DNA of 60,210 nucleotides, filler included, from Sphacelaria rigidula (taxonomy: Eukaryota), in assembly GCA_964200075.2 (NCBI GenBank). It is 6 parts of 6 records of this genome, joined end to end, with 100 filler letters (N's around TTAATTAATTAA, not from the genome) between each part and the next. Parts side by side here need not be neighbours in the genome. Positions count along the whole stretch, not along the records: positions 40,211 to 50,161 come from CAXNAA020007431.1; 5 more parts are not named here. One strand, written 5' to 3'. The notes beneath the pieces were generated by a model that saw only the letters and a program-made list of their open reading frames with translations, had not been told where the DNA came from and ran no database searches. A program made the position numbers and the translations under genes. This document shows, piece by piece, positions 9,955-51,000 of the stretch; within the stretch, counting starts at the first letter, position 1; each line of letters starts with the position of its first letter.

Positions 9955-10054
9955 NNNNNNNNNNNNNNNNNNNNNNNNNNNNNNNNNNNNNNNNNNNNTT
10001 AATTAATTAANNNNNNNNNNNNNNNNNNNNNNNNNNNNNNNNNNNNNNNNNNNN
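9955..10054. other. Artificial contig linker (N44-TTAATTAATTAA-N44)
   Basis: Identical 100-nt cassette recurs five times; its core has stop codons in all six frames; flanking contigs are 9954, 9953, 9952, 9951, 9951 and 9949 nt (length-sorted). Confidence 0.97.
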
Positions 10055-12017: not shown

Positions 12018-14228
12018 ATTGATCTGATTGATCTGATTGATCTGATTGATCTGATTGATTGATGATCGATTGAGTGCTTGTCGCACTTTAACTGATCCCC
12101 CACAGATCCAGCCGTGGTCACATGATATACGTACCGGAGAAAACCAAACAGACCTGAAACACTCGCTAAAGGAAAAGAAGAAACAGAGAAGGTCGAACAG
12201 AACGACATGCTAGACTAAGACCTGAAACAAAATTAAAAGTCAACGAGGCAAAGCACACACAAGAAAGGCTGATCTAAAACAAAAATGAAAAGAAAAGAGC
12301 AATAAACAAAGAAACAAAAGGGAAACAGAAAGGCCCTGGAGGTTGTGGCAGCAGAGTAGATACAAACACACTCCAGTGAACACCGCAGAACCATCGACTA
12401 AGGGCATGATCAACAACCGATACAAGCAGACAGAGCTCTTGGATTAGCGATTCTCAACGCGGCAGCCTCTCCTTTGCGACGGCGGTCTGATTTTGTTTTG
12501 TCCGCGCGTCCCCACGTGTCCTCAAACCCTTTCGCTCTTTTTCCGACTCCAGTATGCCATTTACCCATGTGTTTCGCCGTAGTGACCCAATCGTATGCAT
12601 CGCTAAGCTCTACACCGTAGATGAACCATTTCCGTCGGGCTATGTACGAAAGAGTCTTGCAATCAGTTCGACTCTTGCCGCGGAATCAAGCCACTTGCAG
12701 CAAGAGCTTGTGATGGGCAGTCCGCAGGCTGTCGAAATCCTCAGAACATGGCGCCCATGTGGCACATCCATACAACAGAGCCTCTATCACCTCCGCTTGA
12801 GGCAGTCGAATTCTGAAGGATAGCTCGGCGTTGGGTCGGTCGTAAAGTTGGGAGCTAAATTTTTGGATACGTGCTCACACCGCGCTAGTACGGCGTTTGA
12901 TTTCGATGGACATTTTCGTACCCGTGCTGATAGCTCCACCAAGGTAGATGAACGTCCCTGTCTGCTTATACTGTTGATCGGCAGCTCTGATATTCAAGGC
13001 GGCCACCCTGGGGCTGGGTACTGACCAAAGGCGCATTGGACACTACCTTGCTCTCGGAGACCATCAGGCCGATTCTTGGCAGGTCATTACTATCACGGCC
13101 ATCAGTCGAGCAAGGCTGTCTGAGGTCCCCGAGGCTATGCCGGCGTCGTACGCATGAAGCATTGCCCACACCGCGCGTCGAACGTTTTCTAGCGATGTCT
13201 CTTCCACGGCTTTATCACGGTCGCCTTTTGGCGCATCATCTAGAAAGACCGAGTGTAAGACGATAGCTGGGTTCGCCGCAAACTGCTGAACGATCATCCC
13301 CACCAATCTTGCTCCGAAAATGTTGATCATCAGACGGGGCGAAACGCAACCTTGTCTGAGTCTGTGGCAGATATGCAACCAAGCGGATAGTTCGCCACTA
13401 TCTAGCTGTACCCGAGCTCCCATGCTGTCGTAAAACATCTGGATGATCGTGATCATTCGCGACGGGATTCTGGACCAAGCAAGCATTATCCACAAGAGCG
13501 TGCGGTCTACGGAATCGTATGCTTTGTGCAGATCGATAAAACACATGTTAACTGGGACGTTGCTCGCCCGTTCCAACTCCTAAGGTCGGCATTCTACGAA
13601 CATCATGTCTGTGGTCGATCTTTGACGCCGAAGTCCGCATTGTTTTTCGGGAAAGACATCGTTTCCCTCACAAACATTACTGAGCCTGTCGGCCACGATT
13701 ATGACGGGAACTTTAGCAGTATATCACACAAGGGAAATGCCTATGCAGTGACCACACTCGGTTCTATTCTGTGTTTGTGTAGCACTCTGATGATGATATG
13801 TTTCCATTCTTGCGGCACCTCGCCAGGTCTCCAAACCGCTGAGACGATGCTGTGGAAGTGGTACAGAATCTCCGACGCCCCCTCGTTCAGTCCAAGCTTT
13901 AGGGGTTCAGCAGGAATACCATCCGGACCGGTTGCTTTGCCGTTCGACATAGCTATCAAAGCCTCCTCAGTTTCAATTGGGCTTGGCGGGTCTCCTATTG
14001 ATAGCGCTATTGGTCGTTAAGCAATTATCTTGATGGCGGTTTAGTCGATAGTCACCGATATGGCGTTCAGCACTGTAGAGAGGTACCGCTCCCACCTTCC
14101 ACTGATCCAAACTTTGTACCGCAGTGAATTGCCACCCCCATCTCGAATATACTGCTCAATCTCGATTGGTCGTCCGGACAGTCTCTACCCTCTGTTGATA
14201 TCTCTGTACCATTCCCTCATACCCCCCC
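12018..14228 (-). mobile_element. Degenerate RTE-type non-LTR retrotransposon (RT to 3' tail)
   Basis: Broken ORFs 13741-13959 (KATGPDGIPAE, GEVPQEWK) and 13064-13576 (CFIDLHKAYDSVDR, LRQGC, WAMLHAYDAG = decayed YADD); T-rich 3' UTR; (ATCAATCAG)n tail at 12018-12068. Confidence 0.92.
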
Positions 14229-17421: not shown

Positions 17422-19945
17422 ACCGCTGCAGCTACTCGGTTAGTCGTAGTGGGTGGGGTTGGTGAGACATCGGAATGTCGTCAATTTCTTGTCGATCACC
17501 CCTAAAACCCAGTCAAGCCTTAGCCTTCATCACGTAACCATGTTCATCGGTTTTCCACTGGAAAAGCCACTTCGAATCGGCTGCTTTCTCTCCAGGTGGG
17601 TCAATTACGGTCCACGTGTTATTATGTTCTAGCCCCTCTACTTCCTTCTTCATCGCGTCCAACCACACACTCTTGTACTTCAAACTGTACACATCCTTCA
17701 CCGCCTTGGGGGCTGACTCAATATCATCAAGAGTCATGTATGAGACCAGCTCCAACCCAGACTCCCCTGAGTGTCTTGGGTCCTCCGTGCTTGCCAGCTG
17801 AGCTAGGATCCCACAAATCCCCCGTGGCTGTCCACAACGCACTATGACCACCCTCATGCTCCCGCAGGTCTGGAACTTGCTGTTAAAGTAGCTGCTCCTG
17901 ACACTGCTTCAGCAAGGCACGTGTCTATTGCCTTGTCCGGCCAAGTGTCGGCTGAAGCAATTCAGGTTGGTTCGCGGCATCCCCGCCGCCGCCGACAGAC
18001 GATGTCTCCGAAAGATCTTCATCAGAGGATGAAGACGAAGCAGACGGCTGCTGCCCAGACTCTTCGCCGTTGTTGCCGCCTAGCTCCTCCTCAGGTTCCA
18101 CCATCTCATCAGGTACCACCACCCCATCTACCACACGTTTAGTTTCCTCTCACGAAGCACCACCAGGGATGCCCCCACCAATGCCGAGATCCGACTCGTC
18201 AGAGTCGGAACCAGAACTCTTGACATCGCCCTCCCCGCTCTCCACATCCTGTGAGTTTCCCCCTTCCTGATATAGAAAACGGAACCGCTTGCTGCGAGTT
18301 TTTGGGGGAGTGAGTGCTGCCAAGTAACATCGCGAGTAGTGATTACATATCTGCCATTCGTCTGCATTCTCATGGTTTCACGGGGGTAGTTGTAGCCAGG
18401 CCCTAAGTAAAAACACTCCTGTCGTTTCGGCATACACTTCGACGTCCTCTTATACCTACAGTACCCTGGCTTGAAGAAAGGGAGAAGCTTGACTTCAGGC
18501 ACTTTACCGTAAAACGTCTCATCTGGGAATTTCTTCCCAGGGTTAGCAGTGGTACCAGAATAGTTTAACGCATCCGCTGTCCGCAATACGACTCAGCCCA
18601 CATCCTTGCCGGAACATCCACGACATACAGTACCTTTGCCTGAATCCTGGCTGCAATAGCGGCTTTCTCAATCATCGCGATTGCCCGTTCGGTACCACCA
18701 TTGTACTCGGGACTATCTACTGGGGTATATTCTTGCCTTATGCCACGCTCACGACACAGATCACTGAAAGAACCTGAAAACTCTCCACCACCGTCAGATC
18801 TTACTGTCTCTACAACTGAGGGAATGCACTGTGCTCCTACGCCAGCCAGGTATTGCTTAAACGCCCTCGTGGTGTCAAACTTATGTCGACCGAAATACGT
18901 CCAGATTTTCAGGGTGAAATCATCCCGGATGAGAAAAGAGTAGTACTTCATGCCACCCGCACTCTCGACCAATTTCGGGCTAGACGCATCCATGAACACA
19001 CGCTCAAAAGGTTTAGCTGCACGCGTAGTGGTGGAGGTAGGGACGGGTTTCCGCAACCCCTTCGCCATTGAGCAGCCTTTGCATTCGTGCAACTTGCCCA
19101 CCAGTGTCACCCCCAGCTGTTTCGTTGTTACTCGCGACAAACACTCGTGCAGGTGCCCGTGTGACTGGTGAAACAAATTTGTGTCCACCTGATTACGGTC
19201 AACAGGTATCTTGCCCGGGGCAAGGACAGCTTGCGCGGATTCATCGGGATCAGACTGATGGGGTTTCGACGACCGACTGGATGGCAGGCTACGGCGCGTT
19301 ACGGTCACGACATCGTTTCTGCCATCCTTCTCAAAAAGCAGTTTCCTCCCACCGGGCAACGTGATTCAGTGCCCTCTCTCGTAAGATTAATCGGCAAACC
19401 ATGGTCCAACACTACACTCTGCAGGGAGGAAAGGTTTACGTCCAAATCAGGCACACGTGCCACGCGCTTGATACCGAATGTTAACTTGTCGTCGCCACTA
19501 CCTGTCGACACCAAGATATTTCCAAAGCCCAAAATCGGCGCCGTTTGATTGTTAGCCACGTTACCGAACGACCAGAGCAAGGCTCATAGTTATACATGCA
19601 GTCACGCGATCCAAACCTCTCGTCCCCCCTCATCAAGAACTGGGCAGTCCCCTCGTGTACTATCTGCTGCAGACGTGGATTCGTCAGTCTGGACTACTTT
19701 GAAACCAAAGTCTACTGAGTCCTTAAAAGAGTCAGACGTGCACATTGCGACCATCTTGTAGAACCCTCTTGCATGTCCTTTTCCTCCGCACACCTCGCAA
19801 ACACTTTCTGGGAACTCAGACTTAGAATGGCCAGTTTTGCCACACTCGTAACAGGGGAGTTTTGTTTTCTGTCTACGGCTTTTGTCTCACACGAGGAACT
19901 ACCGTCACTCCCTGCTTTTTTATCCGACTGTGCATTCCATCAAAC
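17422..19945 (-). mobile_element. Degenerate Ty1/Copia gag-pol (Zn knuckle, protease, integrase, RT N-terminus)
   Basis: CEVCGGKGH knuckle (~19770-19800); decayed VWIA protease motif; ORF 18565-19359 with H..HGH..CKGC, VFMD, VRSDGGGEF and PEYNGGTERA; ORF 17513-17857 with WLDAMKKEVEGLEHNNTW..SKWLFQWK..KAKA. Integrase precedes RT, as in Copia. Confidence 0.93.
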
Positions 19946-20229: not shown

Positions 20230-20400
20230 AATATAAAAGTACCTCTCTTCGAAAATGACGCAAATCCTCCTCCCGTTCCCACGTAACACGCATGAGGCCT
20301 TTCTAGTGAGTCTGATACATAACCGCAATTTTACCGCCTCGACCTCGGACAAATTGATGGTCCAAGATGCCATCTACCACTACACGTTCAAGAGGACCGT
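20230..20400 (-). pseudogene. Chromodomain-like C-terminus of integrase
   Basis: Manual translation VVVDGILDHQFVRGRGGKIAVMYQTH*KGLMRVTWEREEDL fits the V..I.DH...Y...WKG...TWE..E.L chromodomain pattern. Confidence 0.75.
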
Positions 20401-20415
20401 CAGCGTCTTCAACCG

Positions 20416-22783
20416 TCATGTGGTACGGTGGGGTTTTCGCCGCATACCTGGTGAGGACTTACTGACTGAGCCCCATAGGCAAATCCTTGGGCATATCACT
20501 AGCGTCGTGAGGGGGCACGGCTTGCACCGAAGCATCGAGACCCGGTTTTTGGGTTTGACGCCAGGTTTATCCGTGGGGAAATCCCAATACAAAAGCTTCT
20601 CACCTACTACTGGTTCATCGTCAGGTGCGGTATCACAGGGCCCAACTGCTAAAATCTTCCAAGGACCTGTCCAATTCAAGCAAAGCTTCGACTTCAACAC
20701 CTTATCCGACGACGACTTAGCAGAGCTTGCACCTTGGGTTACAGTTCGCACATCGTTATACACCCATGCCCAGTCACCTACTTTGTAGACCGGACGGTTG
20801 TTCACTGCATCATCCAACACGCGGTTTGCCTTAGCTACCTTTGCTGTGTTGATCAAGTTCTGCTCCCGTACCACTTCATATGCAAGATGACGACGATTAC
20901 TAACAGACATATGATACTCCACAATATCCCTATCCAAACTCTGATGACCACCAGGGGGTTTCCCGTCGAACACTGTCAATGGCAGCCTGGGCATACGGCC
21001 AATATGAACTTCATTGCGAGCCAAGTCGGTGGCGGCTTTGACGGAGTTGTTGTAGTTTATTTGGACAAGGGGTAAGTGCAGGTCCCAGTCCGTTTGTCGT
21101 TCATTGGTCACTGTGACAACCATTTGCGCCGTGATTAACTCGTTCGGTCCCACCGTTTGTGGACGGATGGTATGAACTAGTAAAAATACGATGGGCACCC
21201 AGGAGATTACTGATCGCGGCAGAAAGTTTGCCGGCAAAATGTGGGCCGTTATCGGATAACAAACGTATGGGGACACCCCACTGAGGGATGTATGTGTACA
21301 CAAGGACGTTGGCAGTCCCTTCTGCACTATAGTTGGCCTCCGAAACAGCATTCATCACAGCATGTCGACTGAACCGATCCGTAAACAACAAAACGTACTT
21401 GTTACCACCATCAGTGAGGGGCAGGGGGCCAAAGTAGCCCCATGAAACTATTTCACCAGGCCCATTGGGGAGGGGCATAGAGATTACCGGCCATCTAACG
21501 GTTTGACGCGAAGTTTTGCGTGCTTGGCGAAGAAGATACCGCCGAACCCACCAACGCACACATTGGTCCATACGAATCCACAAAAAAAAACGTTGAAACA
21601 TCTGGGAGGTCCTAGCGACGCCCAGATGTGTGGATGCTTGTGAGTGACATTCATTGAGAACCCATGGACGCAGAAGCATCGGAACATAAATACGTACGGG
21701 GGCATCACCCAACAAATAGGCGTGACTATTTGTAGGTTTCCCTTTAGGAGGTTTCGTGGGGGGGCGGTGAACTAAAGGAACAATGCCATCATCATTCGTA
21801 TAAAGCATGCTTTTACGCGATAATTCAGTAACTTCATCCTGTGTCGGGGCTCGGTGGGGCCCTACTGGCAAAAAAAACTCAGTTTCTGGAAAGGGGGAGG
21901 GGCCTCCTTTGGACAAATAATGTATAGCTGCTCTACAAGCAGGTTCAGATTGCTGTTCCCGGGCCCAATCAGCGTGAGAAAAGAGGGTCAGTTCCTTGAA
22001 TACACTGTCGGAGGGGTTGTCCAAAACGCAGGGGATCGAATCGCTGTGGGATGGACACGAGGCGTTATTTGGATCAAGGTCACAAGGGGTGGTCAGTGTA
22101 TTCTCAAACGGAACGTTCACCTTTATTCCTACGTTGTGGAGGGTGTCGGATGGTGTGGTACCGGGGGTGGTACCATCACGGGGTGGAGGAGGCACAGTCG
22201 AGGTCTCGACTATGGTGGGCAGAGGTGGTTTGGGAGGTGTCGATTCTCTGGGGGCTTTGCGCCGTGGAGGTAGCGGGGGCGCAAGGAGGCCATCGGGGAC
22301 TGGAATGGGGTTGAGGATTGGCAGGTCTGGGCCGGCTGTTGCCAGGGCGGCAGCCGTTTCCGCGGCCCGGCGTCCTCTGGTCCGGTTCGAGATGAGGTCT
22401 CGGACTTGAACCGGGGGGACGCAGTCAGTAGAAACCGGCTCTACAGTGCAAACCATCCGATGACCAGACGCACGAAATTGATCATGCCCGCCGGTAGTTG
22501 CACGAATTTCACTCCTAACTGAACACAACGATCGTGGGGCCAAACTGCCCGACACAGAAGCGTGAGCCGAAGGCGTCAGCTTATTTTTAACAAGTGCCGA
22601 GTTGTGGTTCAGTGAGAGTGGAGTATAGAGCCCGCCATGACCATTCGTGCTTATGAAATATGCAATGTCTTCGGTGGGGTCTGTGATGCGACCCAAGGCG
22701 GAGTTGTCGATGGGTTGGGCTGGTAAGGGCAAGCGTGACAGGAAGTCGGTGTTTGCGTTTTGGGGACCTGTGCGGTACTTCAA
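20416..22783 (-). pseudogene. Gypsy integrase with GPY/F region (frameshifted)
   Basis: H..HLGVART zinc-binding part, FTDRFSRH, LLSDNGPHF and YHPSTNGGTERVNH; next frame has DWDLHLP, YNNSV and NWTGPWKILAVGP. Confidence 0.92.
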
Positions 22784-23107
22784 CGTGAAGCTGTAGGAAG
22801 ACAGGATTTCAAACCAGCGTTAAACCCGGGCGTTGTGTTCCACCATTTTCGCGAGGTTTTCCAAAGACTGATGATCTGTATAAATCACAAACGGGAGATC
22901 ATACAAATATTGCCGGCGCCGGAGCACTCCCCGAACAATTGCACCGCTTCTTGTTCCATAACAGACCAGTTCTGTTCGTTTGGGTAGGTGGTTCAGCTCA
23001 GATATACAATGGGGCGAACACTAGCATCGTCTTGTTCCTGTTCCAGTGTGCAGCCAAACCCAATTTTTGAAGAATCCGTGTGCAGTCCGAACGGACGGGA
23101 GCCATTT
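22784..23107 (-). pseudogene. Gypsy RNase H (stops and frameshifts)
   Basis: Manual translation gives LHTDSSKIGFGCTLEQ..RPIVYLS, EQNWSVMEQEA and FVIYTDHQSL. Confidence 0.85.
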
Positions 23108-23983
23108 TTAGCAGCTGGCCAGCCTGGAAAAACCAGAATTGGTGGCTTTGACAATGTGTCGAGCTACTCTCGTACAATTGTTTTTCATTGCCGACGTGAA
23201 CACGAATTTCACCCCCTTTTTGAGGAGGGTGGTGAGAGGTTTTAGAGCTTGGGCTATATTTGGCAAATACTGACGGTAGTAGCTCAAACCATCGAGTAAA
23301 GAGCGTACTTGAGAGACATCGCGTGGCATGGGCATCTCTCTAAGTGCGGCAACTTTGTCGAGGTTGGGGCTACGACCTTCAGGGCTGATAAAATGGCCTA
23401 GGAACTCGATGCGCGTGGCTCCAATGCGGGATTTAGATGGGGCGAGCTTCAAATTGTGTTGTTCAAAACAGGCAAAGAAGGATGCCAAATGTTCGACGTC
23501 TTCAGCAGGTGTACTGCCGTGAACCACCGCATCGTCGAGGTACATGCGGCATTTGGACAGTCCATCAGTGACGCGAAACATCACACGTTGAAACGCTCCT
23601 GGGGCGCCGGCGGCACCTTGTGGAGTGACCAGCCACTCATATAGACCTGACGGGGTGTAAAACGCCGTCAGCTCGATAGAGTGCGGATCCATCACCAGTT
23701 GGTGGTAACTGGACTGTATGTCGAAGTTCGAAACAACTTTGCCCCCGCCGAGGGAGTCGATGATTTCATCTATCCGGGGAAGAGGTAGACGTGCGATTTT
23801 GGTGACTGCGTTCAATCGTTGATAATTGACGGTCAGTCGGATCTTACCATTCTTCTTCCGAACCACTACCAAAGGCGAGGCCCACGGAGACGTTGAGTGC
23901 TGCATTAACCCGGCGGACAAGTATTCGTCGAGAATTACTTGAATTTTACCCGCTAGAAGAGGGTTTGTACGGTACGGACGCAT
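23108..23983 (-). CDS. Gypsy reverse transcriptase (fragment)
   Basis: SPWASPLVVVRKKNGKIRLTVNYQRLN, PLPRIDEI, GLYEWLVTPQG, MYLDD and IEFLGH motifs. Confidence 0.95.
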   Translation of the reverse strand: MRPYRTNPLLAGKIQVILDEYLSAGLMQHSTSPWASPLVVVRKKNGKIRLTVNYQRLNAVTKIARLPLPRIDEIIDSLGGGKVVSNFDIQSSYHQLVMDPHSIELTAFYTPSGLYEWLVTPQGAAGAPGAFQRVMFRVTDGLSKCRMYLDDAVVHGSTPAEDVEHLASFFACFEQHNLKLAPSKSRIGATRIEFLGHFISPEGRSPNLDKVAALREMPMPRDVSQVRSLLDGLSYYRQYLPNIAQALKPLTTLLKKGVKFVFTSAMKNNCTRVARHIVKATNSGFSRLASC

Positions 23984-24731
23984 GGCGATAGGTGTCGTAC
24001 CATCAGGAATGTCTATTTTGAACGGTATAGTGTTGCAGCGGCCAAAATCTGTTGACGATTTGGAAACCTGTTAAGAGTATCGTATCAAGATGGAGCGTAA
24101 CCGATCAATTACCGTGGGTGTCCAACCCTCACCAGATGAATCAAACGCAATGTGTCTCAAATGGGGGGAAATTTCATCCCATAATCGTTGAAAACTAACA
24201 CGTTGCTCTGGCGAGAATGTATCTAGTAACGCAGTCGGGGGGTTTGTGTCAGGCGTATCAGTCGATTCGTCTACAACCGTGGGTGTCTGATGATGTTTGC
24301 GGTGGCACCTTCAGACATACATTCGACAAGGCTGCGCGTAGGAGGGGCGCTTGAGGAAAACCCAACAACTGACCAGGGAGGACATCGAGACATGCCGAGG
24401 ACGTGAGGGGAATGGATTGCCGACCCTCATGGACAAATACATCGGTCTGCTCAAAGGGGGGAAGACTGTCTGGGGTTTGGTTGGGATTGGTTAAGTCGAC
24501 CAAGTACTGTCCAGTGAGGGCGGGGGATCCGTTCCGTCTCACAATATTCACATGGATGTGTTGAGGTTCACGGGACAGAGAGACGACGTGGTCTCCAACA
24601 TAATTCAGTCGAAAAGCATCACCTGTTTGTGTTGGGTCATCGACATAGGCCTGAACCCCTGGATCAGCGTCGTGATGTCCCAATTTCAATCTGCCTGTCA
24701 GTGGTCGGTTCAAAACAGGTGAGTTTGTCGT

Positions 24732-26528
24732 TTATGTATGTGTGGAAAAACGTAGCCAGCTATCACGTCCCAAGAGAACATCAACCGACATGGAACCATC
24801 AGGCACGATGAGTGCCCACACAGCTAATCGTGCAGTGGGACCCATGTCATCGAAGAATTGTACACTGAGTCGTACTGATTGATCAACCGTAAGGGGAGTG
24901 GAGGCACCAAACCCGCCAAAAGGCGGAATAGCAGAAAGGCAATGTTTGTCTGCTGCTCCAGCGTTCATCATGTGTTGCCAGCAGCTGGCTGTAATGAAAG
25001 TTTGTGGCGAGCCAGTGTCGGGCAGGGCAACGGCCATCAAAGAGCGTGTTGCATGCACTCCACTATGTATACCTATTCGGGTTGTGAAGGAGGCGTCATC
25101 CATGAGTGCAGTTCCACTTACCAAGTCCGGTCCGTATTCCGACAAGTGATCTGCAGCCACATCGCTCTTGTGTTGTTGGGCAATGGTACTAAAATAGACT
25201 CGAGATTGATCCTCTGGAACGAATGTGTTTTCCGAAGAGCCGTCGTGGCACGGGGGGTTTTGCAGGGCATGTGGTGCAGTAGACGAAAGTTGGATTTCGT
25301 ACACAGTCAGGGATGGACGACGCCTAGGAAAGGAAGTGGATGTGGATGTTTGCAATAGTTGTTTGAAGCTATGAGAAACAGGGGAGAAACAGTCCTGATC
25401 GGACTGCAATTTGGACGGCACAGCCGGCGTTTGTCCGGCACCATGAGACATACATGCAGGACGTAGCGGTTTTACTGTCCCAACAGTTGTCAACGCTACT
25501 TTATTCTTCAACATAGACTCCGAGGGGTCGGCAGGAAGCGATGCTGATCTGTTCGGGATCTGGGAAACACCGACCTGTTCTACGACAAGGCCTTCATCCA
25601 CTGTGCCCGGCACCCGGGAACCTTCTTGGTGGGCGGATGCAGCGGCAACTACAGGTTTATTTACAGTGCCATCCGAAAGAGCCTTCTCCTGGTCTCGCGT
25701 ATAGCGCACTCTAGAGCCGGCTGTTCCAGAGGCTGTTGGGAAGTTGGCAAGGTCAGTCCGTTCGTGTCTACACACGTGGCGCTTGGTCGGCACTGTCGCT
25801 TGGGGTTCTTTCCCAACCCGCTGAGCTACAGAAAGCAAGGGTTCGGCACTGGCGCGCGTAGTGCACGAAAAATTACGCTTACCAAATAAAAAGGTACCGG
25901 GCACACGCGGAATTTCGCACGCATGTGTTACCGGGTTCGACTGGACTCCTGAGTCTTTCGCGGGGCTGGGGGGTCTCTGTAAACGTTTCATCCTACGATG
26001 AACGGTCGTAGGGGTAACAGCTACCGTATCAGAAGATGTTCCTGCTTCTAAGGCGGTAGGCGCTACGCTACATGACTGCCGATTCCGCGGGGCGATTGGG
26101 TCCAACTGGCATTGACTACTACCACTCGGAAACACAACTGGGTGATCAGATCCAGTATGAAAAAACTGGGGTTGGTCATTGCGCATTTGGGAGTCATGCA
26201 ATGTTGCACGGGACTGTGCTGTCATTGGACCCGTCATGACAGAGCGGTCAACGCTAGCGTATCCACACCACAAACGAGAACCCACGCTGGCCGACGACGG
26301 TTTTGTTAAGTGGTGATGGTGCACTGGCTGAGTGAAAGAAAATGTATTGCCGCGGTTTGTTGTTGAAGGTTGTTGGGGCCCGACTGTGGACCTGTGGTCG
26401 ACAATGGGGTTTGAAGTAGAAGTGTTATCAAAATGTAAAGAGGGTGACGGCGACGTGTTACAAGCGGTCACACACGCAGAGGTACCCCGTCGGTGATTTG
26501 GAAACGCGGGGTGTTGTGCGTTTCCCAA
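24732..26528 (-). CDS. Gypsy pol N-terminal region with aspartic protease
   Basis: 598-aa ORF containing ALPDTGSPQTFI and DVLLGRDSW retropepsin motifs after a long S/T/P-rich leader. Confidence 0.85.
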   Translation of the reverse strand: MGNAQHPAFPNHRRGTSACVTACNTSPSPSLHFDNTSTSNPIVDHRSTVGPQQPSTTNRGNTFSFTQPVHHHHLTKPSSASVGSRLWCGYASVDRSVMTGPMTAQSRATLHDSQMRNDQPQFFHTGSDHPVVFPSGSSQCQLDPIAPRNRQSCSVAPTALEAGTSSDTVAVTPTTVHRRMKRLQRPPSPAKDSGVQSNPVTHACEIPRVPGTFLFGKRNFSCTTRASAEPLLSVAQRVGKEPQATVPTKRHVCRHERTDLANFPTASGTAGSRVRYTRDQEKALSDGTVNKPVVAAASAHQEGSRVPGTVDEGLVVEQVGVSQIPNRSASLPADPSESMLKNKVALTTVGTVKPLRPACMSHGAGQTPAVPSKLQSDQDCFSPVSHSFKQLLQTSTSTSFPRRRPSLTVYEIQLSSTAPHALQNPPCHDGSSENTFVPEDQSRVYFSTIAQQHKSDVAADHLSEYGPDLVSGTALMDDASFTTRIGIHSGVHATRSLMAVALPDTGSPQTFITASCWQHMMNAGAADKHCLSAIPPFGGFGASTPLTVDQSVRLSVQFFDDMGPTARLAVWALIVPDGSMSVDVLLGRDSWLRFSTHT

Positions 26529-26625
26529 ACACCGTCAGGTGGTACGTTTGGCATCGATAGAGTCGTGGGTCCCATTCTGGCGGGCTGTGTTCGGGGCAGT
26601 AGATGTGTTTGTGGAGGGGCTAGGA

Positions 26626-29600
26626 TTACTTGGGTGTTGAGCCTGGTTTGGCGGTTGAAAAGCGCCAGAATGGGCGAGGGGGTACGTGAGAGGGGGCCGC
26701 GTTAGCGGGCTGAGCGTGATAATAGGAATGTTGGTATTGAGGGGGGGCGCGAGTGTCACCATTATAGTGGCGATTGCCGCGCCGGGGGCGTTGGTATGAA
26801 TTGCGGGCGCCGCTGGGTTGAGGGCGACGGTAAGACCGCATACGTGCTTGCCAAGTTGGCCAAAAGTGCGCAAACTGGGGCTCGAAGAACATGGGGTTGA
26901 GTACGCCAAATGCGTTTGTGAACGGGGCTTCGCATTGGCGCATCGAGTGCGTTGGAACTTGACCATTTGCGGAGTACCCCGTCTGAGGATTGAACCAAGT
27001 ACCACAGTTCAGGCAGTGATCTTCGCAGCGGCGAATTACATCTGATCGAAGATTAGGGTCTCCGTTACTGGCCCAGAGGGGGGGGTCTGTTGTGTTCATC
27101 GAAGTGCTTACCTAAAATACTTCCGGCCAAATTTCCGTCGCGAAGGGCCAGCTTGGAAAACGACTGTTGAATGCGTCTGGGGTGTGTGCTAACAGGAACT
27201 CCCCAGTAGAGGCCATAGACGCAGGATTCCAGGGGCGTTGGTTTGTTTTAGAAGGTGGTGGTTGGGAGTGAGACGCAGGGGGGGCGGAAAACGGGTGAGG
27301 CAAAAGGGTGGCGGAAGCATCGTGGCTGTGCCGTACAGAGGGGCTGTTGTGAATTGCGGAGGAGCCACTCTGTTTTGCATCCGTCACATCTAATGCCGGA
27401 GTGCGTTTGGACCGGAGTTCATCTAATTTCGTCCACATAGCGTCCAAGGTTTGAAGCGGGACCGATGAAGTAGCTGCGGTACCGACAAAGACGGTTGGCA
27501 TGAGGCTAGGGTATTGGCGTCCCATATTGGAACGGAAAAGACTCATCACCATTTCTTGTGATGGGACAGATTCGCTGCCACCGTTTACCGTAACTGAAAT
27601 TATAGTGCGAAATTCTTGAGGTAGTGGTCGAAGAAGGTGTCGACGGGTACCTTAAACGATAGCAGGCGTTCGAGTGACTCGCCTTCGTGGGTGGTGTCCA
27701 GGGATGAAGTGATGAGTCTGAGAAGGGGGGTGAAAGCAGCGTAACCGCCATTACCGAGGGTGAGGGAGCGTGCGGCTTGTGCGAAGTGGTGATCGAGCAT
27801 ATTGGACAATTTAGATGCCTCGGGAGAGCTGAAATCGATGGCATCCTCCAAAGTCTTTTGTAAAGGTCGAAGCCAGCCATTTACCCAATCACTGGCCTCA
27901 AGGTCAACGAATGTATCGTCGCAGTGTGAGAGGATATCAGTAACTACAGTAGTGAGGGGTTGTCGTAACTGGCTGCAGGAAAGGCTCACAACAGATCCCG
28001 CAGGAAAGGGTAGTGAAGGCTTGACTTTGCCTACAAATTTCGGGTCCAAGTTCTTGTACTGGTGGCGTACAACCTGAATCTGTGCCTGTCGGTCCGTAGA
28101 AGAGAGGGAAGGGTCACTAGTTTGAGGGGTGGGAGCCGAAGGAGCAAACTGTACGCGGCGGGTAGCAGGTTTGGTGTCTTCCTTCGCTTGCTTGACTTTG
28201 ATCTGAGAGTGACGCTGTTTGGCGAGAGTGGATGATAGCGGAAGGAAATCGCTCAAAGTGGGGGGCGCCGGACGTGAAGCGGCCGTACCCGTATCATTAT
28301 GAGACCCGTCAGTGCTGTCCGACTCACTATTGAATGAAGGGCGAGGATGACGGCGAGATCGTGACTGCTGCGAAATGTGAGATTTACCACTATCCTTGAG
28401 ACGGTTTTTCCCTTTCCCTTGAACAATCCAACTGCCGCCACTTTCCGTTGAATTGTGCCCTACGTGACCTGTCTGAATGATTAGTGGTAGTAGGGGATGA
28501 ACGGTTCGTACCATCAGCAGGGCCGTGTACTGTCATGCGTACCTGCTCTATTTCCGTGAATAGCCCGATGAGGGGCCCGACGACTCATGCCGCAGCGCGA
28601 GGCTAATTTCGGAACGAGGGTTGGAACGTATGCTTTGAACGACGCCTGCTAACGTTACGGTCTCGGTGTGTTTCGGAAACCAATTGAGGATCTTGATCGA
28701 ACTGTCAGTAACGGGAACAGTGAGGCGCTGTGCCTGACACGCGTAGGTAAGGAGGGTGTCAGGGTCGTGGACAAAATCGTAGAGGGGAACAGCTGCCAAA
28801 GTTTCTACACCAGAAAGATTACGACCGTCGGCACGAGTAGCCTTAGGAACCAGCGTTGAGTGAGTGGGTTTAGTGGAGAGTGATTTGTCCGTTGTGGAGA
28901 CAAATGTAGGGGGCGTTTTGCAGCGGTGAACTTGGGGGGGCGCACCAAACGTGGTTGAAACGCCGGGTGCGATCGTCTCAAGTGGCATGGGAGGTAGTCC
29001 CGTGGCTAGAGGGGCGACATTCGGAGTGGCATTGGAAAGTGCGGATGAGCCAGTGGATGAGTGATCAGAATCGGATTCAATGTCGATGGGATCGCGGGTG
29101 AGCGGACGTAACTGTTTCATCTGCTCGTCCAGTGAAGATTGAGTGACGGAAATGCGATAGGTGGATTGTTCCGCTGTCGTATTGTGTTGTTGTAAAGCTT
29201 GTTCATATTGGGCTTTAGCCGCCTGCAAAGGCTTGGCGGTTTGCCGGAGGAGGCGGGCTTCTTTGTTCTGCCCCTCCGCCAAGGCTTTGCGTTTGGCTTC
29301 GACCTCACGACGGACGCGCTGGATTTCTTGAGCGTGCTCGGAAGCTTCACGATTCTTACGTTCTACTTGCGCTTGCACGGTCTGGGCCAACAACTCATCC
29401 CAGTACGCGGCTTGTTCCTCGCGGGAACATTTGTCCCACGCATGGGCTGGAATAGCAGCGGGACGGCTATGTTTAAACTGGGTCTTAGCTTTGTCGCGTG
29501 CTTTCTTTGGTAGGCGCGAAGACGGGTTTTTTCCCGACTCACGACCACTCGTCGAGGCTACGATATCAGAAGCGTAGGGCTCAGCAGAGGAATGATCACG

Positions 29601-29915
29601 AACCGAATGGTCACCACTAGCAGTGGGGTCGACGTGCTTAGTGTCACTGGTGAGAGTTTGAGCGGTGGCGGCATACAGTGGGAAATCAAGTCCCGGCTGT
29701 ACGTCGGGCACCTTAGAGAGGGGAATTCCTCCCGACTGAGATTGGGCATCATCATCATCCTCTACACTTTCAATGACTGGATCATGCAAGACTGTGTCCG
29801 ACGCACGCAGTGGTTCACCGGATTCGGAAGAGGATGTGCCTTCTTCATCGACACGTAGCTCTAGCGAAGCCGGGGAATTAGACATTGCTTTTGTATCTGC
29901 GCGGGTGCGCGTCAC
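26626..29915 (-). pseudogene. Long gag-like region of the Gypsy element, broken by frameshifts
   Basis: Consecutive ORFs 28548-29915 (coiled-coil-like, EQAAYWDELLAQ..), 27600-28514, 27112-27552 and 26626-27099 (CLNC..H....C knuckle-like); bridging open frames are visible at the junctions near 28530 and 27580. Confidence 0.7.
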
Positions 29916-29993
29916 AGTCAGTGTAGAAAGAAGGAGGGTAATGAATGACCGGGGTGTTGCATTGGAAATGGAAGAGGAAAATCATCTACTGTA

Positions 29994-30059
29994 AACAACA
30001 AATTGTGCGAATTGAGGTTTAACTCCGAGATGAGGTTCAAGCCTAAAGCAGTGATTTCC
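29994..30059 (+). repeat. Terminus of unclassified high-copy repeat (copy 2)
   Basis: AACAACAAATTGTGCGAATTGAGGTTTAACTCCGAGATGAGGTTCAAGCCTAAAGCAGTGATTTCC; matches 1-73 (reverse complement) and 60159-60210. Confidence 0.85.
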
Positions 30060-42590: not shown

Positions 42591-42607
42591 CTGCATGCTA
42601 ATGTAGT

Positions 42608-42911
42608 CTAACCAACCATCTCACGTTCGATATTCGGCAATAGCTGGTTATCCAGAAAATGCCCGCTGGAGCCACTGTCAACGGCCATCTTGAAGAAAAT
42701 TTCGTCGGGTGTACAATAATTGGCAGTGACATGCGAACCTGAAAGGAAGGAAAACCCGATACCGTTTGATGGTTGACATGAGTCAAGCACAGTTTCGGCT
42801 GAAGGTGTCGAAATATGTTGGCCTTGGTGATTCGATGGTACTGTCGCGGAAGCTGGATCGGCGATGGTAGTGTTGGCTTGATGTTGATGTCCATTGAAGT
42901 TGTTGCTGCCG

Positions 42912-42966
<55 letters not shown>

Positions 42967-44119
42967 CGTCGTCGTTGCTGTTGTCGCGGTTGTTGTTGTT
43001 GCGTTGACTTCTACACTCGGAGTCGTCATGTTTGTCTGTATGGTGAACACTGCACCATTTAACAGACCTGTTCTGGTGGTTTGACTGGCCACTAGAACGG
43101 CCGTCACGGGCGTGGTGACCTCTTCTTCCGCACAAAAAGCATTTTCCGCGAAATTTCGCGGCTTGATTCAAGGAATGCGACATTGCCGCCGCCAGCATAG
43201 AAGAATCACGGCCATGTGATCTGCTCGCGGTTACTTTCCTCGCCAGTCTATTGGCATACATGTAACATAGGGTAGTTTCAATGTCCCCGATGCTCAAGTC
43301 TGGATCTCGTTCTGCGTTGTATTTCACTTGGTCACCCTCGCTGGTTAGACCCTCGACTACGATATCAGTGAGTCTTTCGTCGGAGATGGACTCGCCAATG
43401 TGTCCGAGCTCGTCTCGGAGCTGAAATAGTTTTACCAAAAAAACATCCGGGTCTTGTCCCGGTGAAATGGTCATGGTGTCCAGCTGTCGCATCAGTAAGC
43501 GGCGTCTTTGCTTTGATGAATTTTGGTACTTGGCTACCAATCCTTCCCACGCACTTTTGACGTTTGGTTTCTCTGAACCCTTCGGCTGGAAACGCGAAAG
43601 ATAACTTGCCGCTGAACCAGTTATCGATAAGTACAAAACGTTGAACGACTGTTCGTTATACCGGTCCCAGTTTTGTATCTCACGCGTGTTCAAAATTTGT
43701 CTCACATTTGACTCCATGCTGGGATGACCAGACACTTCTCGAACAGGAGGTTGGGCTTGATCACCAGCAGTTTCAGCATCACCAGCCGCTGCTGACCTCT
43801 CGTTCCCCGCGGTTGCCTCCACCGATGGCAACGGCGAACGAGCGGGCGGCTGCTGATGGCTTCTGGAACGGGTCGCAATGGGGCTTGTTCTTGATGTCGA
43901 TCTGGCAGCTGGCTGTGGGTGATCTACCTCAGAAAAATCTTCACGAATTTCCGGGGGGCGTTCAACCCCGTTGAGGATATCAGATACCTCCGGATGAATC
44001 AAGGAAATCATCGCACGCGTAGAGCGCGCCCACTCGGCGAATTTCGTACCGTCGAACTTGTTTATACTCCTGGTGAATTGAGTTATAGATGGCTCTCCCG
44101 ATGTATTCATCTGCCTCAA
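42608..44119 (-). CDS. Ty1/Copia gag-protease fragment (503 aa, 3'-truncated element)
   Basis: KFDGTKFAEW, AWEGLVAKY..LMRQL..PGQDPDVF (UBN2-like gag), CFLCGRRGH and WCSVHHTDKHDDSEC knuckles, in-frame (AAC)n poly-Asn, MAVDSGSSGHF protease. Confidence 0.9.
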
Positions 44120-44777
44120 ATGTTATTTGTCAAAGACGTTCTCTTCACACCTGCAGATCCTGTGAAAGGATCTGATTTCTTGGTCTACTGATTGATACTA
44201 CTGAGACGACCTTGCAGTGACGCCCCCTCGCTCGTGCTGACCTTTGTAGTCTCGATTCGAAGGCCGATGACCTGAAGAACTACGTGGTCGCGAATCGAAG
44301 GCTCAAAACCTGTTGGAAATATTTGTGGCTCGTGGCGTTTTCTACTGTTCTCGAAACAGACCGACTACTGTCCCGAAGACGGTAGTTTAGCAGAGGTTGC
44401 ACAGTAGTAGTCAAACTGCTTGCTTGTGCAGCAGACAGAAAGTCCAAATACAAAAATAGTGTTCGGGGCTCTTCACTTCGGCCACTTCGGCCGAACAATT
44501 AGGCAGCCTCTTTTGCAAGCAGAGTGCTGAGGAAATGAAGAAGAGCTGGGTAAGCTTGGTAAGCTTGGGAGAGTGATTGCGAGGGCGATAGACCACCGAA
44601 TACAGCCATACTCAATCCTGGAAGAAGAATCCAACACTCTACACGTACGTAAGGTCTAATCGTATCACTCAATTCAACCTCGCTATTGCTGACGCGGTAG
44701 CCTCGCTAGCTTAGATTAACTGCAAAGTTGCACACAAGATATCCTATAGCTTACGTGGCCTAAATACTCTGCTAGAG

Positions 44778-46271: not shown

Positions 46272-46570
46272 GTCAGGTCGGGTTCTGGGTGCCATCTGTC
46301 TGCCTTGCTCTGGGGGTTTGCATAAGTGTATGTGGTGAGTCCGTGTGTGTGGTATTGAGTGGGAGAGATCGAGGGTAAGTTATCGAATAACAGTGTGTGA
46401 GTGATTGAGGTGAATTGGCTGAATAAGTAGAATGTGACGACGAGATAATCAACACGCTATATACAGTACTACTGATATTTGCCTGAACCGGGCTACTGAC
46501 TACTGTTCACGCACTTGATTCGTGTGGACGCTTGCACCCGCATCAGAGCGGTTTATCACGCCAGCGGGAG
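46272..46570 (+). mobile_element. Probable 5' LTR and PBS-like region of a Copia element
   Basis: Non-coding block directly upstream of the gag ATG at 46703, followed by GGTTTATCACGCCAGC; boundaries approximate and no second LTR for comparison. Confidence 0.35.
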
Positions 46571-47140
46571 AGATTTACCGCCTTTGCAGTAGGGTTTGAG
46601 ATCGGAGAGAGTTTGAGTAAAAGAGTTCTTGAGAGAGTGGTGTGGCGGTTTTCAGGTTTGAGTAAAGGTTTTGCAAGGTTGACAATTTCACTAGGTTTTA
46701 ATATGGAAGAGTATCAGCACCCCACGACCGTGGGAGAACAAGTGAGACATCTAACTGAACCGATAAAGAGAATGCAGCAGACAATGAAAAGTTCACCGGT
46801 GATGCCTGCTAATACAGCACCGCAAGCACCGTTCCACAACCTCAATTCCCACCGTGTTCGCAACAACAAAAGCACTCCACCTTGGGATGTAAAAGCTGCA
46901 ACATCCACTAATGCCAAGGAAAGATTCGATGTGTTTTACATCCAGATGTGTGCGAATTTCAAGGATGAAAACTGCTATGACGCTTTGTCAGTTGATAAAC
47001 CCATCAGAGCACATCGTGAAAACGAGGAGGATTTGCGAGCACATTTCGGAAATGTAGCTGTCGACAAAGCCAAAAAGGCCATGAAGATAATTCTCGATAA
47101 GGAAACCTATCCCCCCCTCGTAAGGCACACCGATATGCTT

Positions 47141-47626
47141 CACATCCTGGACAATACAATATCTTTCCAATATATATTAGGCGATCATATTGGAATTTTG
47201 CGATGTATTGCCGGCGTAATATATATTGGTACCCTTGGACTGCAAACGTATTGCGCGCCCAATATATATTGATGTCGTGGGACTGCATACATATTGCCCG
47301 CCAATATATATATTGGTACTGTGGGGTTGAACACATATTGTACCATCAATATATATTGGGGTAGCGTGGGCGACAGCACATTGGACGACCAATATATATT
47401 AGGGTCGCACTGATGAAAACATATTGACCGGTCAATATATATTGTGTCTGCGTGGGTGCTAATGTATTGGCCGGTCAATATATATTGGATATTATAATCA
47501 TGGTGTGTGCTTTAAGAAAGGTCCACACGCGATGGATGCCAGAGTCAGTCCAGATTGAGAAAAGCTTTAAAGGGAGCCGCAAAAGTCCGCGTGCATTACT
47601 ACGGAGAGTTGTTGAATGCGGTGACG

Positions 47627-47666
<40 letters not shown>

Positions 47667-48824
47667 TTGATCAGAAAGTATGGTGACAGAATAGGCGACC
47701 CGGTATACACGCCTTCTGATACCTATCTGGCCACCGGTGCGAGACCGCCCATCCCCTTCACAGCATGTGATTCATATATATATATATATATATATGCTAA
47801 GCATCACGATGACAGAAAACGCGGGTCGATATGCGCCTTTTGGTACCTCTGTGGTCACCGGGTCTGTGTTGCTTGTACCCTGGAGAATACAATATGTTCC
47901 AATATGATACCAATACTGTGTATTGGAGCAAGCTCAAATATTGACCTTTCAATATATATCGTGTTGAGATGTCCTCGGAGACATTGAAGCAATAGTATAT
48001 ATTGCCCCTGTCATGATCATGAAGTAATGTATATGACAATATATATTGGGCATGCATTTGCTCTGGGAATAAAACATTCAACATATGTTGTGCATGCCGG
48101 CCGTGTACGTATTGAAGTGTCAATATACATTGAGTTGAAGCGATGCGTAGCATATTGTTACCACAATATATATATTGAACGCAAGTCATGCAAAAGTATT
48201 GTTTCTCCAATATATATTGCGCACGTTCATCGCATAGCTATTGTGTAGCCAATATGTATTGAACACGCTTGCGGAGGAATATATCGAGCGTTTTCGGCAT
48301 GTGGTGACACATCTTTCGTTGGCGCCCGCGAACATAAAGTTGCCCAACATACTAATTCCAATACACTTTCCAATCTACATGTTGAAAATCAAAATGTATT
48401 GCTACATCAATATGTATTGTGACCGTCGATTCCCTAGTGTATCGTCCGCCCAATATATATTGGACGCATTGCACGACATAATGGGGCGGCAATATATATA
48501 TATTGACGCCTCGGGTGTTGAGTATATTGAATCGTCAATATATATTGACCTCGTGTGGCAGCCAATATATTGCTCGACAAATATATATCGGTGCTTCCTC
48601 GCACCGATATATTACTCGGCAAATATTTATTGAGGTGGCGCGTGTCGTGATATATTGTTCGGTCGATATATATTGGATGTTGCAGGCCTTGACATATTGA
48701 TGGCACAGTATATATTGACCCTCTCTCGTGCCATCATATTGCTCGCCCAATATATATTGACCACCCAACGCGTCGACATATTGTGCGGGCAATATATATT
48801 ACATATTGTATTGTCCAGGGTGTG
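47141..48824. mobile_element. Non-autonomous TIR DNA transposon with 8-bp TSD (hAT/P-like signature)
   Basis: 22-bp TIR CACATCCTGGACAATACAATAT / ATATTGTATTGTCCAGGGTGTG (1 mismatch); TSD ATATGCTT (47133-47140) / ATATACTT (48825-48832). Confidence 0.9.
47168..48801. repeat. Interspaced dual-motif array, 42-43-nt period: RTATTG-N6-CAATATATATTG-N18/19, in three blocks
   Basis: Palindromic 12-mer or close variants at 47168, 47217, 47260, 47302, 47347, 47390, 47433, 47476; 48079, 48121, 48164, 48208, 48250; 48408, 48451, 48490, 48536, 48579, 48621, 48664, 48706, 48748, 48790. Intervening segments are all different. Confidence 0.92.
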
Positions 48825-49284
48825 ATATACTTGCGAACCCAAGCGAAGCATGGGATTATATCATAAAGTATTACAGGATTCCAGCAGCCACGGAAACAGC
48901 CAAGTTGGAGTACGAGTGGCAAACTTCACAGATGGCTGACGGTGAATTGCCGATGAATTTTCTCTGGCGGGCAGAGTTCATTTGCACGGAGCGCGCAGAA
49001 TTTAATGTAGTTATCTCGGACTCTGAGACAAACAGGCATATTGTTCGATGCCTTTCGTCAGAGTACGAGCACGAACGTAGTAATGTATTAGCACTACGTG
49101 AGATAGGCATAGAAGAGTTCACCCGCCAACTGGAAAATGCGTATGCTGAAGCACAGTTGACAAGAGAGAGGAAGGAAGGATCGAGGAGGAAAGCTATAGC
49201 TCAAGGTCAGGTATATCATCTACGAAATACGCGACAAACACAACACAGTGGAACTACGGAAACCATACCCCGTACACGTGGCCA

Positions 49285-49504
49285 CACACGCGGCCGTTTG
49301 GCTACCTCCAAAATTCCTCGAGGTGGGCAAACGTTTCGAGCTTCCAGAGGAATCAAACGCCTCCGGAGGGGTGCACGGCCCTCCAGAGGAAATTTCTTGG
49401 TTTTCTCCAGAGGGATCAAATGCCTCCGGGGGCTTATTTTTGCCCCTGGAGGGCCGCGCATCCCTCCGGAGGCATTTTGGGGTGTAGCCAAATGGCCGCG
49501 TGTG
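49285..49504. mobile_element. CAC..GTG-ended MITE with 2-bp TSD (CMC/EnSpm-like)
   Basis: CA|CACACGCGGCCGTTTGGCTACCTCCAAAAT ... ATTTTGGGGTGTAGCCAAATGGCCGCGTGTG|CA; about 8 internal CCTCC(A/G)GAGG-like palindromes. Confidence 0.82.
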
Positions 49505-50161
49505 CACTCGGAACAGAGTCTTCTTTGAGGGGTGATAACAAATCCTGTGCGCCGAAAGGCGAAATCTCCCCCATCATCAACCGCAAGATAGGCACTTCGG
49601 AAAACGGGTACGAGCTGGGTCACCAATAAACATGTGCATTTCGGTTAGGGTTATGCGGTGCCCAATGTTTGCAGTTACGAGGTGAAATTTCGTGACGACA
49701 TTCGTACCATCAATACGCAGAAATTCAGAGGAGCAGCTAATGAAAAGTGAAACAAAATGAACACCTGCATATGCAAAGTCTTACTCCAGTTGCGGCTCCT
49801 CACTCATAGAAGTAGGCACCGCATCACACTTTTCGTGACTATTGTGCCAAAATTGTGCCGTCTTCAAATCTTCACCAAATATGCTGAGTGCAGTTTTCCG
49901 GGCATTACTTCCCAACGAAAATGAATCACAGAACGAGATTCTGACCGTGTTTTTCTTTGGAGTCATCCTACGATAGGGAGGGGGGGGGTATTTGGTTGCA
50001 CGAAAAAAGAGGCTCATAATTGTATCAGACATCCTTCCACACTTGCGTTGCACTTATACTCGGTTCCAAACGGTGTCAGGCAGAATAGATGAGCGTTATT
50101 GATCCACAACAAGCGTGTTCGAACAACCATTGCTGCTTTCAACGACGATCTGACTCGAAAT

Positions 50162-50332: not shown

Positions 50333-50829
50333 TACTCTCTCTATGCATGAAAATCGCAGTAGCATTCCGTCATGCTGGCCTGATCATCCACTCCAAGCAA
50401 TATCCTCCCAGGTTTCATACATCGCTATGTATGCACGAAGCTAGAAAGTCTCAATCCAAACGACCCTGAAAACCACGGGAAAAGTTCGGCCACCAAGTCA
50501 AAACCGTCCGTAGAACATCAAACAAACTGGGATACATAGCATGCTATTCTACCGAATTGTTCAAACCATACAGCGCATCAACACGTACAAACATACCACA
50601 CGTCGGACGGATCACTTCCCATAGGATGCGGGTAATACAGCTCAAGTGTGAACACACATGTGTACCCGATTTGGATGATACAGTTCAACTAGTTATGGAG
50701 CGGTCCTCGTGATCCGGATATCATCGATCAGGAGGCAAGTATCTTGTACGGGTTATAAGGATACACAGGTTCTTCTTGACGTTTCGTGTACACCTAATTC
50801 GGATTACATAGGTGTGCCCAAGGAGATCA

Positions 50830-51000
50830 TGTACGGATACTCGAGTCATACAGATCATCATCAGACATATATGTACGAATCACACGGATCATATAGATCA
50901 TCATCAGACAGACATGCACGAATCGCACGGGTAGTACAGGTCATCATCAGACAGACATAACGAACCGCACGGGTCATACAGGTCATCATCGGACAAATAT
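50830..51000. repeat. Minisatellite, ~43-nt unit, about 4 copies
   Basis: TCATACAGRTCATCATCAGACA..ACGAATCGCACGGG units at 50846, 50889, 50932 and 50974. Confidence 0.85.

Follow-up and report, generated by a model that had tools for sequence, protein, structure and literature searches.

What is an array of alternating conserved motifs and near fixed-length variable segments, laid out throughout in a single orientation, doing inside a eukaryotic transposon? The question is raised by positions 47141–48824 of a 60,210-base window of Sphacelaria rigidula DNA (GenBank assembly GCA_964200075.2), the window being, here and below, the whole stretch that was analysed. An initial annotation made from the sequence described about 25 units of this kind and offered two readings of them: a guide array resembling clustered regularly interspaced short palindromic repeats (CRISPR) or arrays of tandem interspaced guide RNAs (TIGR), or a lattice in which protein-binding sites recur in phase every four helical turns. 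We find that 47141–48824 holds a single copy of a eukaryotic DNA transposon that is abundant, non-autonomous and of class II (cut-and-paste). By analogy with Hermes, Ac/Ds and Muta1, its array is probably a phased set of subterminal repeats, which would constitute putative transposase-binding sites.

The element is 1684 bp long and is bounded at both ends by 22-nt terminal inverted repeats (TIRs), outside which lies a target-site duplication (TSD):

47133–47140, no strand: left TSD, ATATGCTT, identical at 7 of 8 positions to 48825–48832
47141–47162, plus strand: left TIR, CACATCCTGGACAATACAATAT, the inner part of which contains CAATA/CAATAT half-sites
48803–48824, minus strand: right TIR, reading CACACCCTGGACAATACAATAT on that strand, located by a match to the 22-mer pattern
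48825–48832, no strand: right TSD, ATATACTT, established from comparison of the flanks and from an empty-site contig

The 22-nt TIR pattern matches the window twice, at 47141–47162 on the plus strand and at 48803–48824 on the minus strand, and nowhere else; 100 dinucleotide-preserving shuffles give a chance expectation of 0. The two arms are complementary at 21 of 22 positions, the inverted identity stops after 22–23 nt, and the tips, CACAT and CACAC, give the element CACA...TGTG ends of the CAC...GTG form. Four open reading frames (ORFs) of 108–146 aa lie inside the element, none of them with a Pfam family.

Six sequencing runs from three studies, among which none is on record as RNA, had matches to parts of 46400–49600, and contigs of four public runs (X1, X3, X4 and X6) were aligned to the region at a likeness of at least 90%. 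One of these contigs (X6, record 26, 318 nt) represents an empty site, being contiguous across 47137|48830: its letters 9–175 fall on 46971–47137 with 13 differences and its letters 176–318 on 48830–48972 with 17 differences, such that exactly 1692 nt, or 1684 + 8, are skipped. The contig thus derives from a paralogous site without the element, and since what is missing from it is the element plus 8 nt, the TSD is 8 bp (ATATGCTT/ATATACTT) with one later change. Contig depth jumps at the TIRs, the element lying 15–100-fold above its flanks, and drops again after 48860. In the bins on either side of the left boundary the summed contig depths, which are a sign of many copies rather than a copy number, were as follows:

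X1: flank bin 47042–47148, 3,855; element bin 47149–47255, 133,873
X3: flank bin 47042–47148, 1,953; element bin 47149–47255, 69,720
X4: flank bin 47042–47148, 756; element bin 47149–47255, 30,794
X6: flank bin 47042–47148, 9.9; element bin 47149–47255, 153

At the right end, 56 X3 contigs extend past 48824 into flanks unlike that of the window copy (median extension 170 letters, agreement 0.4). The element thus has the marks of a class II TIR transposon, namely TIRs, a TSD with its empty site, and presence at many sites without an internal transposase gene; it is mobile and it is present in high copy number. The initial annotation's placement of the array in a eukaryotic TIR transposon that carries no effector gene is borne out.

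The array itself lies where that annotation had put it and comprises 26 long (L) motifs, CAATATATATTG and its variants, which are distributed over three blocks. This agrees with the count of about 25 same-orientation units and is far beyond chance. All nine exact copies of CAATATATATTG in the window are inside 47141–48824, as are 17 of the 18 window copies of CAATATAT and 40 of the 72 copies of RTATTG. The parts of the element between the TIRs are:

47168–47487, plus strand: array block 1, eight L motifs with ATATTG half-sites upstream, the 19-nt spacers mutually related
47488–47873, no strand: non-array middle, where a segment of about 75 nt occurs in diverged copies, one behind each of two (TA)n runs
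47874–47895, plus strand: internal second left-TIR-like sequence, with 1 mismatch in 17 at 47879–47895
47896–48261, plus strand: array block 2, eight L motifs (47950–48261) collinear with those of block 1, the spacers unrelated to those of block 1
48262–48407, no strand: gap as long as about 3.7 units, degenerate, in which only weak traces of the motif are left
48408–48801, plus strand: array block 3, ten L motifs, the most regular of the blocks (periods 39–46), reaching the right TIR

The array is interrupted by 47488–47949 and by 48262–48407. Over 23 neighbour intervals the centre-to-centre distance of L motifs is 43.0 ± 1.5 nt, and Tandem Repeats Finder reports a 42–43-nt period with 66–76% matches. 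An ATATTG-like half-site (at most one mismatch) stands 5–7 nt upstream of 22 of the 26 L motifs and the mirrored, downstream arrangement is found at none of them, so the array is unidirectional and non-mirror, as first described. Long variable segments measure 18–19 nt in 20 of the 22 complete units, those of the remaining two being 15 and 20 nt. The six segments in 47229–47463 that were said to be 19 nt each are reproduced with the original parse; under a fixed 12-nt offset one of them is 18 nt because its unit has a 5-nt loop. The unit can be written [ATATTG – N6 – CAATAT.ATATTG – N18–19]. It holds three copies of a 6-bp half-site per 43 bp, or about four helical turns, arranged in an inverted pair whose members stand 6 nt apart and in an abutting palindrome. 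The half-site carries on into the TIRs (...CAATACAATAT), and the lattice covers about 70% of the element (320 + 852 of 1684 nt, the gap at 48262–48407 included).

The middle of the element has features of its own. Contig depth over 47488–47873 is some 3–8 times below that over the arrays. The (TA)n runs are at 47629–47667 (39 nt) and 47774–47795 (22 nt), and the copies of about 75 nt that follow them share 48 identical positions in 106 aligned columns; from the sequence, the duplicated segment (47629–47876) looks like an old internal duplication. The internal left-TIR-like copy at 47879–47895 marks the element as composite. A gap of 474 nt, equal to 11.0 unit lengths, separates array blocks. 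At 48579–48626, an L motif, its spacer and the next half-site together form a perfect 12-bp hairpin (ATATATCGGTGC / GCACCGATATAT) with a 6-nt loop; the spacer is itself palindromic there, and in other units it is not.

Motifs and spacers have had different fates. Over 22 units, the information content and base composition of the four parts of the unit are:

L motif: 1.70 bits per column, G+C 18%
Short motif: 1.21 bits per column, G+C 23%
Loop: 0.20 bits per column, G+C 57%
Spacer: 0.23 bits per column, G+C 56%

The same contrast is seen between the outer (47141–47490) and internal (47874–48265) left ends, which can be aligned in collinear fashion over eight units: identity is 84% in the 141 motif columns and 77% in the TIR, and has fallen to 41% in the 175 non-motif columns. 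The spacers of the left block are nonetheless alike, with an alignment score of 9.0 against a shuffle mean of 5.5 (standard deviation 1.7) and three pairs above the 99.5th percentile of the null, whereas those of the other blocks barely exceed the null (6.0–6.7). Because left-block spacers still resemble each other, the array appears to have been born by tandem duplication and to have diverged thereafter. Thus, the proposal that motif and length are kept while spacers vary holds for the information contrast but needs amending for the left block, where the spacers are not independent. A similar qualification applies to the palindrome, which was said to be maintained through paired changes at 48079. 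It is kept there, yet this is the sole keeper among 14 variant L motifs, the other 13 of which break the palindrome without compensation. The stems that ATATTG and CAATAT could form are free of mismatches in 15 of 25 cases, have one mismatch in 7 and have four or five in 3, and the changes are all one-sided.

If the array were a transposon-borne guide or small-RNA array, its transcript would be cut to units of about 43 nt, with the 18–19-nt segments guiding an effector encoded elsewhere. The alternation of two conserved motifs with two variable segments of fixed length, the common orientation of all units and the possible pairing of ATATTG-N6-CAATAT, mismatch-free in the majority of stems, are all in keeping with such an arrangement. 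We nevertheless give it almost no credence, because loops and spacers are common to other copies at an identity of at least 90%. X1 records of 132–161 nt differ from the array by only 10–15 letters, even though loops and spacers make up about 57% of the array; loop position 47342 is C in 86 X1 contigs and A in the window copy, and the C at spacer position 47460 is shared by 64 X1 contigs. The family consensus therefore includes the spacers, the window copy differing from it by private changes. Spacers that had been called unique are thus the same from copy to copy, an outcome that the initial annotation had named in advance as telling against guides. In addition, the spacers of the left block derive from one another by duplication, none of the stem changes has its counterpart on the opposite side, and 13 of the 14 variant palindromes are uncompensated.

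Searches for the partners of a guide system point the same way. Elsewhere in the window, no sequence matches any of the 22 spacers at two or fewer mismatches, the suggested search for targets yielding one 3-mismatch match there. Pfam identifies no Nop, RuvC, HNH, nuclease, transposase or cas-like domain in 30 unspliced ORFs of at least 90 aa (4 inside the element, 10 within 41–56 kb, and the large ones from the entire window), and Rfam at gathering thresholds returns no match in the window. The array pattern has no match in viral contigs. Six matches in metagenome contigs and one in a prokaryote genome, each with one L motif apart from one locus with two (L014), are attributable to chance; L014 was rejected as a relative of the array, since it holds a different cluster, of TGCAATAT type. 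A 17-mer of the TIR gave eight single matches in viral contigs, none with an L motif and by estimate at about the chance level, and these too were set aside; the full 22-mer has no match in metagenome contigs. Single strands of the array fold better than shuffles (z = −3.3 and −6.6), with distant palindromes pairing and no unit hairpins in the minimum-energy fold. We rejected these scores as evidence of RNA function because repeated self-complementary motifs pair by construction. With spacers shared, geometry unlike that of TIGR arrays (see below), covariation absent, no Nop or nuclease ORF among those scanned and no relatives of the array in the viral, metagenome and prokaryote collections, the guide-array proposal falls.

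What then maintains the motifs? The conservation of motif and phase against a background of drifting spacers, together with the running of the half-site into the TIR, argues for protein-binding sites selected for transposition competence. On this model, which is the other reading first offered and is consistent with all of the evidence, the lattice would be an extended set of subterminal repeats, to which a transposase would bind by its DNA-binding domain, or else an accessory protein; an autonomous partner outside the window would supply the protein in trans. A dimer, or two domains, could bind cooperatively to the palindromic L site and likewise to the inverted pair with its 6-nt gap, and with four-turn phasing each site would face almost the same way on the helix as the next. 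The many sites would raise the local occupancy of transposase and help the pairing of ends, and copies that keep motif and spacing would be preferentially mobilised. We infer both the transposase as binder and its superfamily.

Two alternatives dispense with a transposase as the binder. In one, the element is a tandem-repeat miniature inverted-repeat transposable element (MITE) and the 43-bp array an internal minisatellite, produced by slippage or unequal exchange and hitch-hiking between the TIRs with no role in transposition; the AT palindrome would then persist for mutational or structural reasons, because it lacks CpG or as a recombination hotspot that seeds the gain and loss of units. The 43-nt tandem periodicity with its 66–76% matches fits this account, as does the relationship of left-block spacers by duplication, and a class of MITEs that carry a tandem array at their centre has been described, for example DTC84 of Donax trunculus (PMC3879986). 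Contigs also skip 42, 44, 171 and 208 nt within the array, approximately whole multiples of the unit and mostly from L motif to L motif, which hints at variation of unit number between copies; each skip is seen in one contig per run, often with short sides, and is weak evidence. We consider the minisatellite unlikely, because decay has not been uniform: motif columns are about 94% conserved beside spacers that are near random, motif positions have been kept between two ends whose spacers have fallen to 41% identity, and the half-site belongs to the TIR itself. By estimate rather than computation, a difference of more than about 10-fold in the rates of motif and spacer would be needed.

In the other, the lattice serves a host or other non-transposase protein, or acts through DNA structure (curvature, cruciforms, nucleosome exclusion, recruitment of silencing or chromatin factors), the family being selected at the host level for such a role or tolerated because of it. 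The strict alternation of composition, motifs at 18–23% G+C against loops and spacers at 56–57%, and the regular 43-nt spacing could be so explained, and the strong folding of single strands, in which any two palindromes may pair, might be counted here as well. This account is improbable: nothing points to a host factor, the z-scores follow automatically from repeated self-complementary motifs, and selection at the host level is implausible because the family is high-copy and inserts into other repeats. A further possibility, to which we attach slightly smaller weight, is that the element represents a new architectural type of transposon, in which the TIRs only mark the cuts and the body is a directional scaffold of triple half-sites, in four-turn helical phase, on which a long filament or a multi-ring assembly of protein forms cooperatively. 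A transposase could be the protein involved, or a separate sequence-specific DNA-binding protein from an undescribed superfamily that unites CAC...GTG tips with an 8-bp TSD; because all units point one way, left could be distinguished from right, and non-autonomous copies would gain an edge in protein capture. In a bolder version still, the array would be transcribed and cut in phase into small RNAs.

The preference for a transposase-binding lattice has to be held against several observations. Neither a transposase nor an autonomous copy was found among the 30 window ORFs or in public collections, and in those ORFs Pfam likewise gives no BED, DDE or hAT dimerisation domain. A regular lattice over about 70% of the element also resembles an internal minisatellite, and the array is not mirror-symmetric, unlike the subterminal arrays of foldback type. 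In known elements, binding repeats occupy some 100–300 bp per end and their spacing is usually irregular. Conservation of the motif could partly reflect the lower mutability of AT-only sequence beside CpG-rich spacers. Finally, the element fits no superfamily cleanly, because CAC...GTG tips go with a 3-bp TSD in EnSpm and a TSD of 8 bp goes with hAT or Zisupton. Presumably an hAT-like affiliation is the leading candidate, at somewhat below even chances, with MULE (Mutator-like element) on the one hand and P or Zisupton/KDZ-like together on the other being equally placed, each well behind it, and other superfamilies taking the rest.

The site into which the element has inserted is itself an ORF, divided as follows:

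46487–47140, plus strand: upstream half of the host ORF, interrupted by the element
48833–49528, plus strand: downstream half of the host ORF, in the same phase as the upstream half

The frame is identical on both sides, 1692 being divisible by 3, and the element thus lies in frame within the ORF, which belongs to another repeat. With the element removed this ORF has about 450 aa. It is itself repeated, flank depths being tens of times single-contig depths, and an empty paralogue of about 90% identity exists. No Pfam family was found for 46532–47140, and Atlas matches for 46487–47140 were all below 0.9; its product may be an uncharacterised transposon or retroelement protein. The same interrupted ORF contains an unrelated 220-bp MITE-like element at 49285–49504, with imperfect TIRs of about 30 nt that open with an 11-nt exact match (CACACGCGGCC) and a TSD that is possibly a 2-bp CA. 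Its summed contig depth in X1 (145,158–341,648) is above that of the main element, and 128–150 contigs per run extend past 49504 into diverse flanks.

Elsewhere in the window, a tandem repeat at 50828–50995 also has a 43-nt period (four copies, 82–84% matches, consensus start CATGTACGAATCACACGG) and is without CAATAT; the shared period may be coincidence. The only Pfam domains across the 30 ORFs scanned in the window are those of retroelements (RVT_1, rve, Integrase_H2C2 and copia-type gag), and these long terminal repeat (LTR) retrotransposon genes fit with a eukaryotic, repeat-rich region. A large LTR element on the minus strand at 20400–30000 carries RVT_1, Integrase_H2C2 and rve and includes ORFs of 598, 455 and 304 aa without a Pfam family; copia-type gag lies at 42608–44119 on the minus strand (LTR genes 42600–44120), and weaker RVT_1 and rve remnants are at 13064–13576 and 18565–19359. 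Runs of N at 3624–3633 and as 44-nt pairs near 9955, 20008, 30060, 40111 and 50162, about 10 kb apart, look like masking or assembly joins rather than biology and leave the array untouched.

Collectively, these results remove a false lead, that of a CRISPR/TIGR-like array in a eukaryote, and put in its place an abundant family of non-autonomous DNA transposons. The family is new and of a known kind, that of non-autonomous TIR transposons with arrays of subterminal repeats, its array being notable for regularity, directionality and extent, and its ends for the pairing of CAC...GTG tips with an 8-bp duplication. No paper with the 12-mer motif was returned by a full-text literature search, which did not cover the TIR string or the transposons of particular algae. 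In a single copy, motif and phase that are under constraint can be set cleanly, as nature provides them, against spacers that are free. Should the cognate transposase be found, the family would offer a convenient system for the effects of site number, phase and orientation on the assembly of the transpososome, and it may be useful as an insertion-polymorphism marker in the host.

How does the element compare with known systems? Its likeness to TIGR and CRISPR arrays, two conserved and two variable parts per unit in one orientation, is superficial. TIGR arrays alternate two repeats of 8–12 nt with two spacers of about 9 nt (8–12) and are processed to a 36-nt unit; both repeats open with box D (UG) and close with box C (CCA); and the arrays lie adjacent to a gene for Tas, a Nop-domain protein, in prokaryotes and their viruses (PMC12045711). 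Here, in contrast, the conserved parts are 6 and 12–16 nt, the variable parts 6 and 18–19 nt and the period 43; an opening TG or a closing CCA occurs in none of ATATTG, CAATATATATTG and the complements of the two; and the 30 ORFs scanned include no Nop-domain Tas gene, the window carrying LTR-retrotransposon genes instead. CRISPR arrays acquire their spacers individually, the content thus varying from array to array, and are accompanied by cas genes, whereas here the same spacers recur in many copies and no cas-like ORF is among the 30.

Among transposons, a high-copy, non-autonomous element with a central tandem array recalls MITEs of the DTC84 type (PMC3879986), but homogeneous monomers are absent here, conservation being confined to the length of the unit and to a motif core of 18 nt, beside near-random spacers. 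In the CACTA/EnSpm (CMC) superfamily, subterminal repeats are a family trait (PMC12730594, PMC2613891), and EnSpm elements have 5′-CAC...GTG-3′ termini and a 3-bp TSD (PMC12730594). The element shares the termini but not the duplication, since its 3-nt flanks, CTT and ATA, differ and the empty site gives 8 bp. MULE TSDs are 8–10 bp, and in the MULE Muta1 a larger number of subterminal tandem repeats leads to stronger transposase binding and more excision (PMC5499845). Tandem arrays of binding repeats beside a terminal motif, and the length of the TSD, relate the element to Muta1, to "type 2 foldback" MULEs and to P elements; the foldback type 2 TIRs are, however, inverted and longer than 100 bp, as against a 22-nt TIR and one-way units here.

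With hAT elements such as Hermes and Ac/Ds, the latter with its hexamers, the element shares an 8-bp TSD, TIRs of small length, a short motif that recurs many times within the ends, and a palindromic pair. The tips of hAT elements are of the CAG/TAG or YARNG type, and those of the element, CACAT and CACAC, do not conform to YARNG. A TSD of 8 bp is usual in hAT and is also found in Zisupton and some MULEs (PMC12730594, PMC5499845), and non-autonomous derivatives of hAT elements share TIRs and subterminal repeats (PMC3260210). The subterminal repeats of Hermes, which are short, are bound by its BED domains, with cooperativity at a quasi-palindrome, phasing being critical and the two ends asymmetric; the motifs are of 4–5 bp, irregular in their spacing and most crowded near the tips, with 5 of 17 on the left and 5 of 14 on the right falling within the first 55 bp (PMC10368747). 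The S. rigidula element, by comparison, carries triplets of a 6-bp half-site every 43 bp through about 70% of its length.

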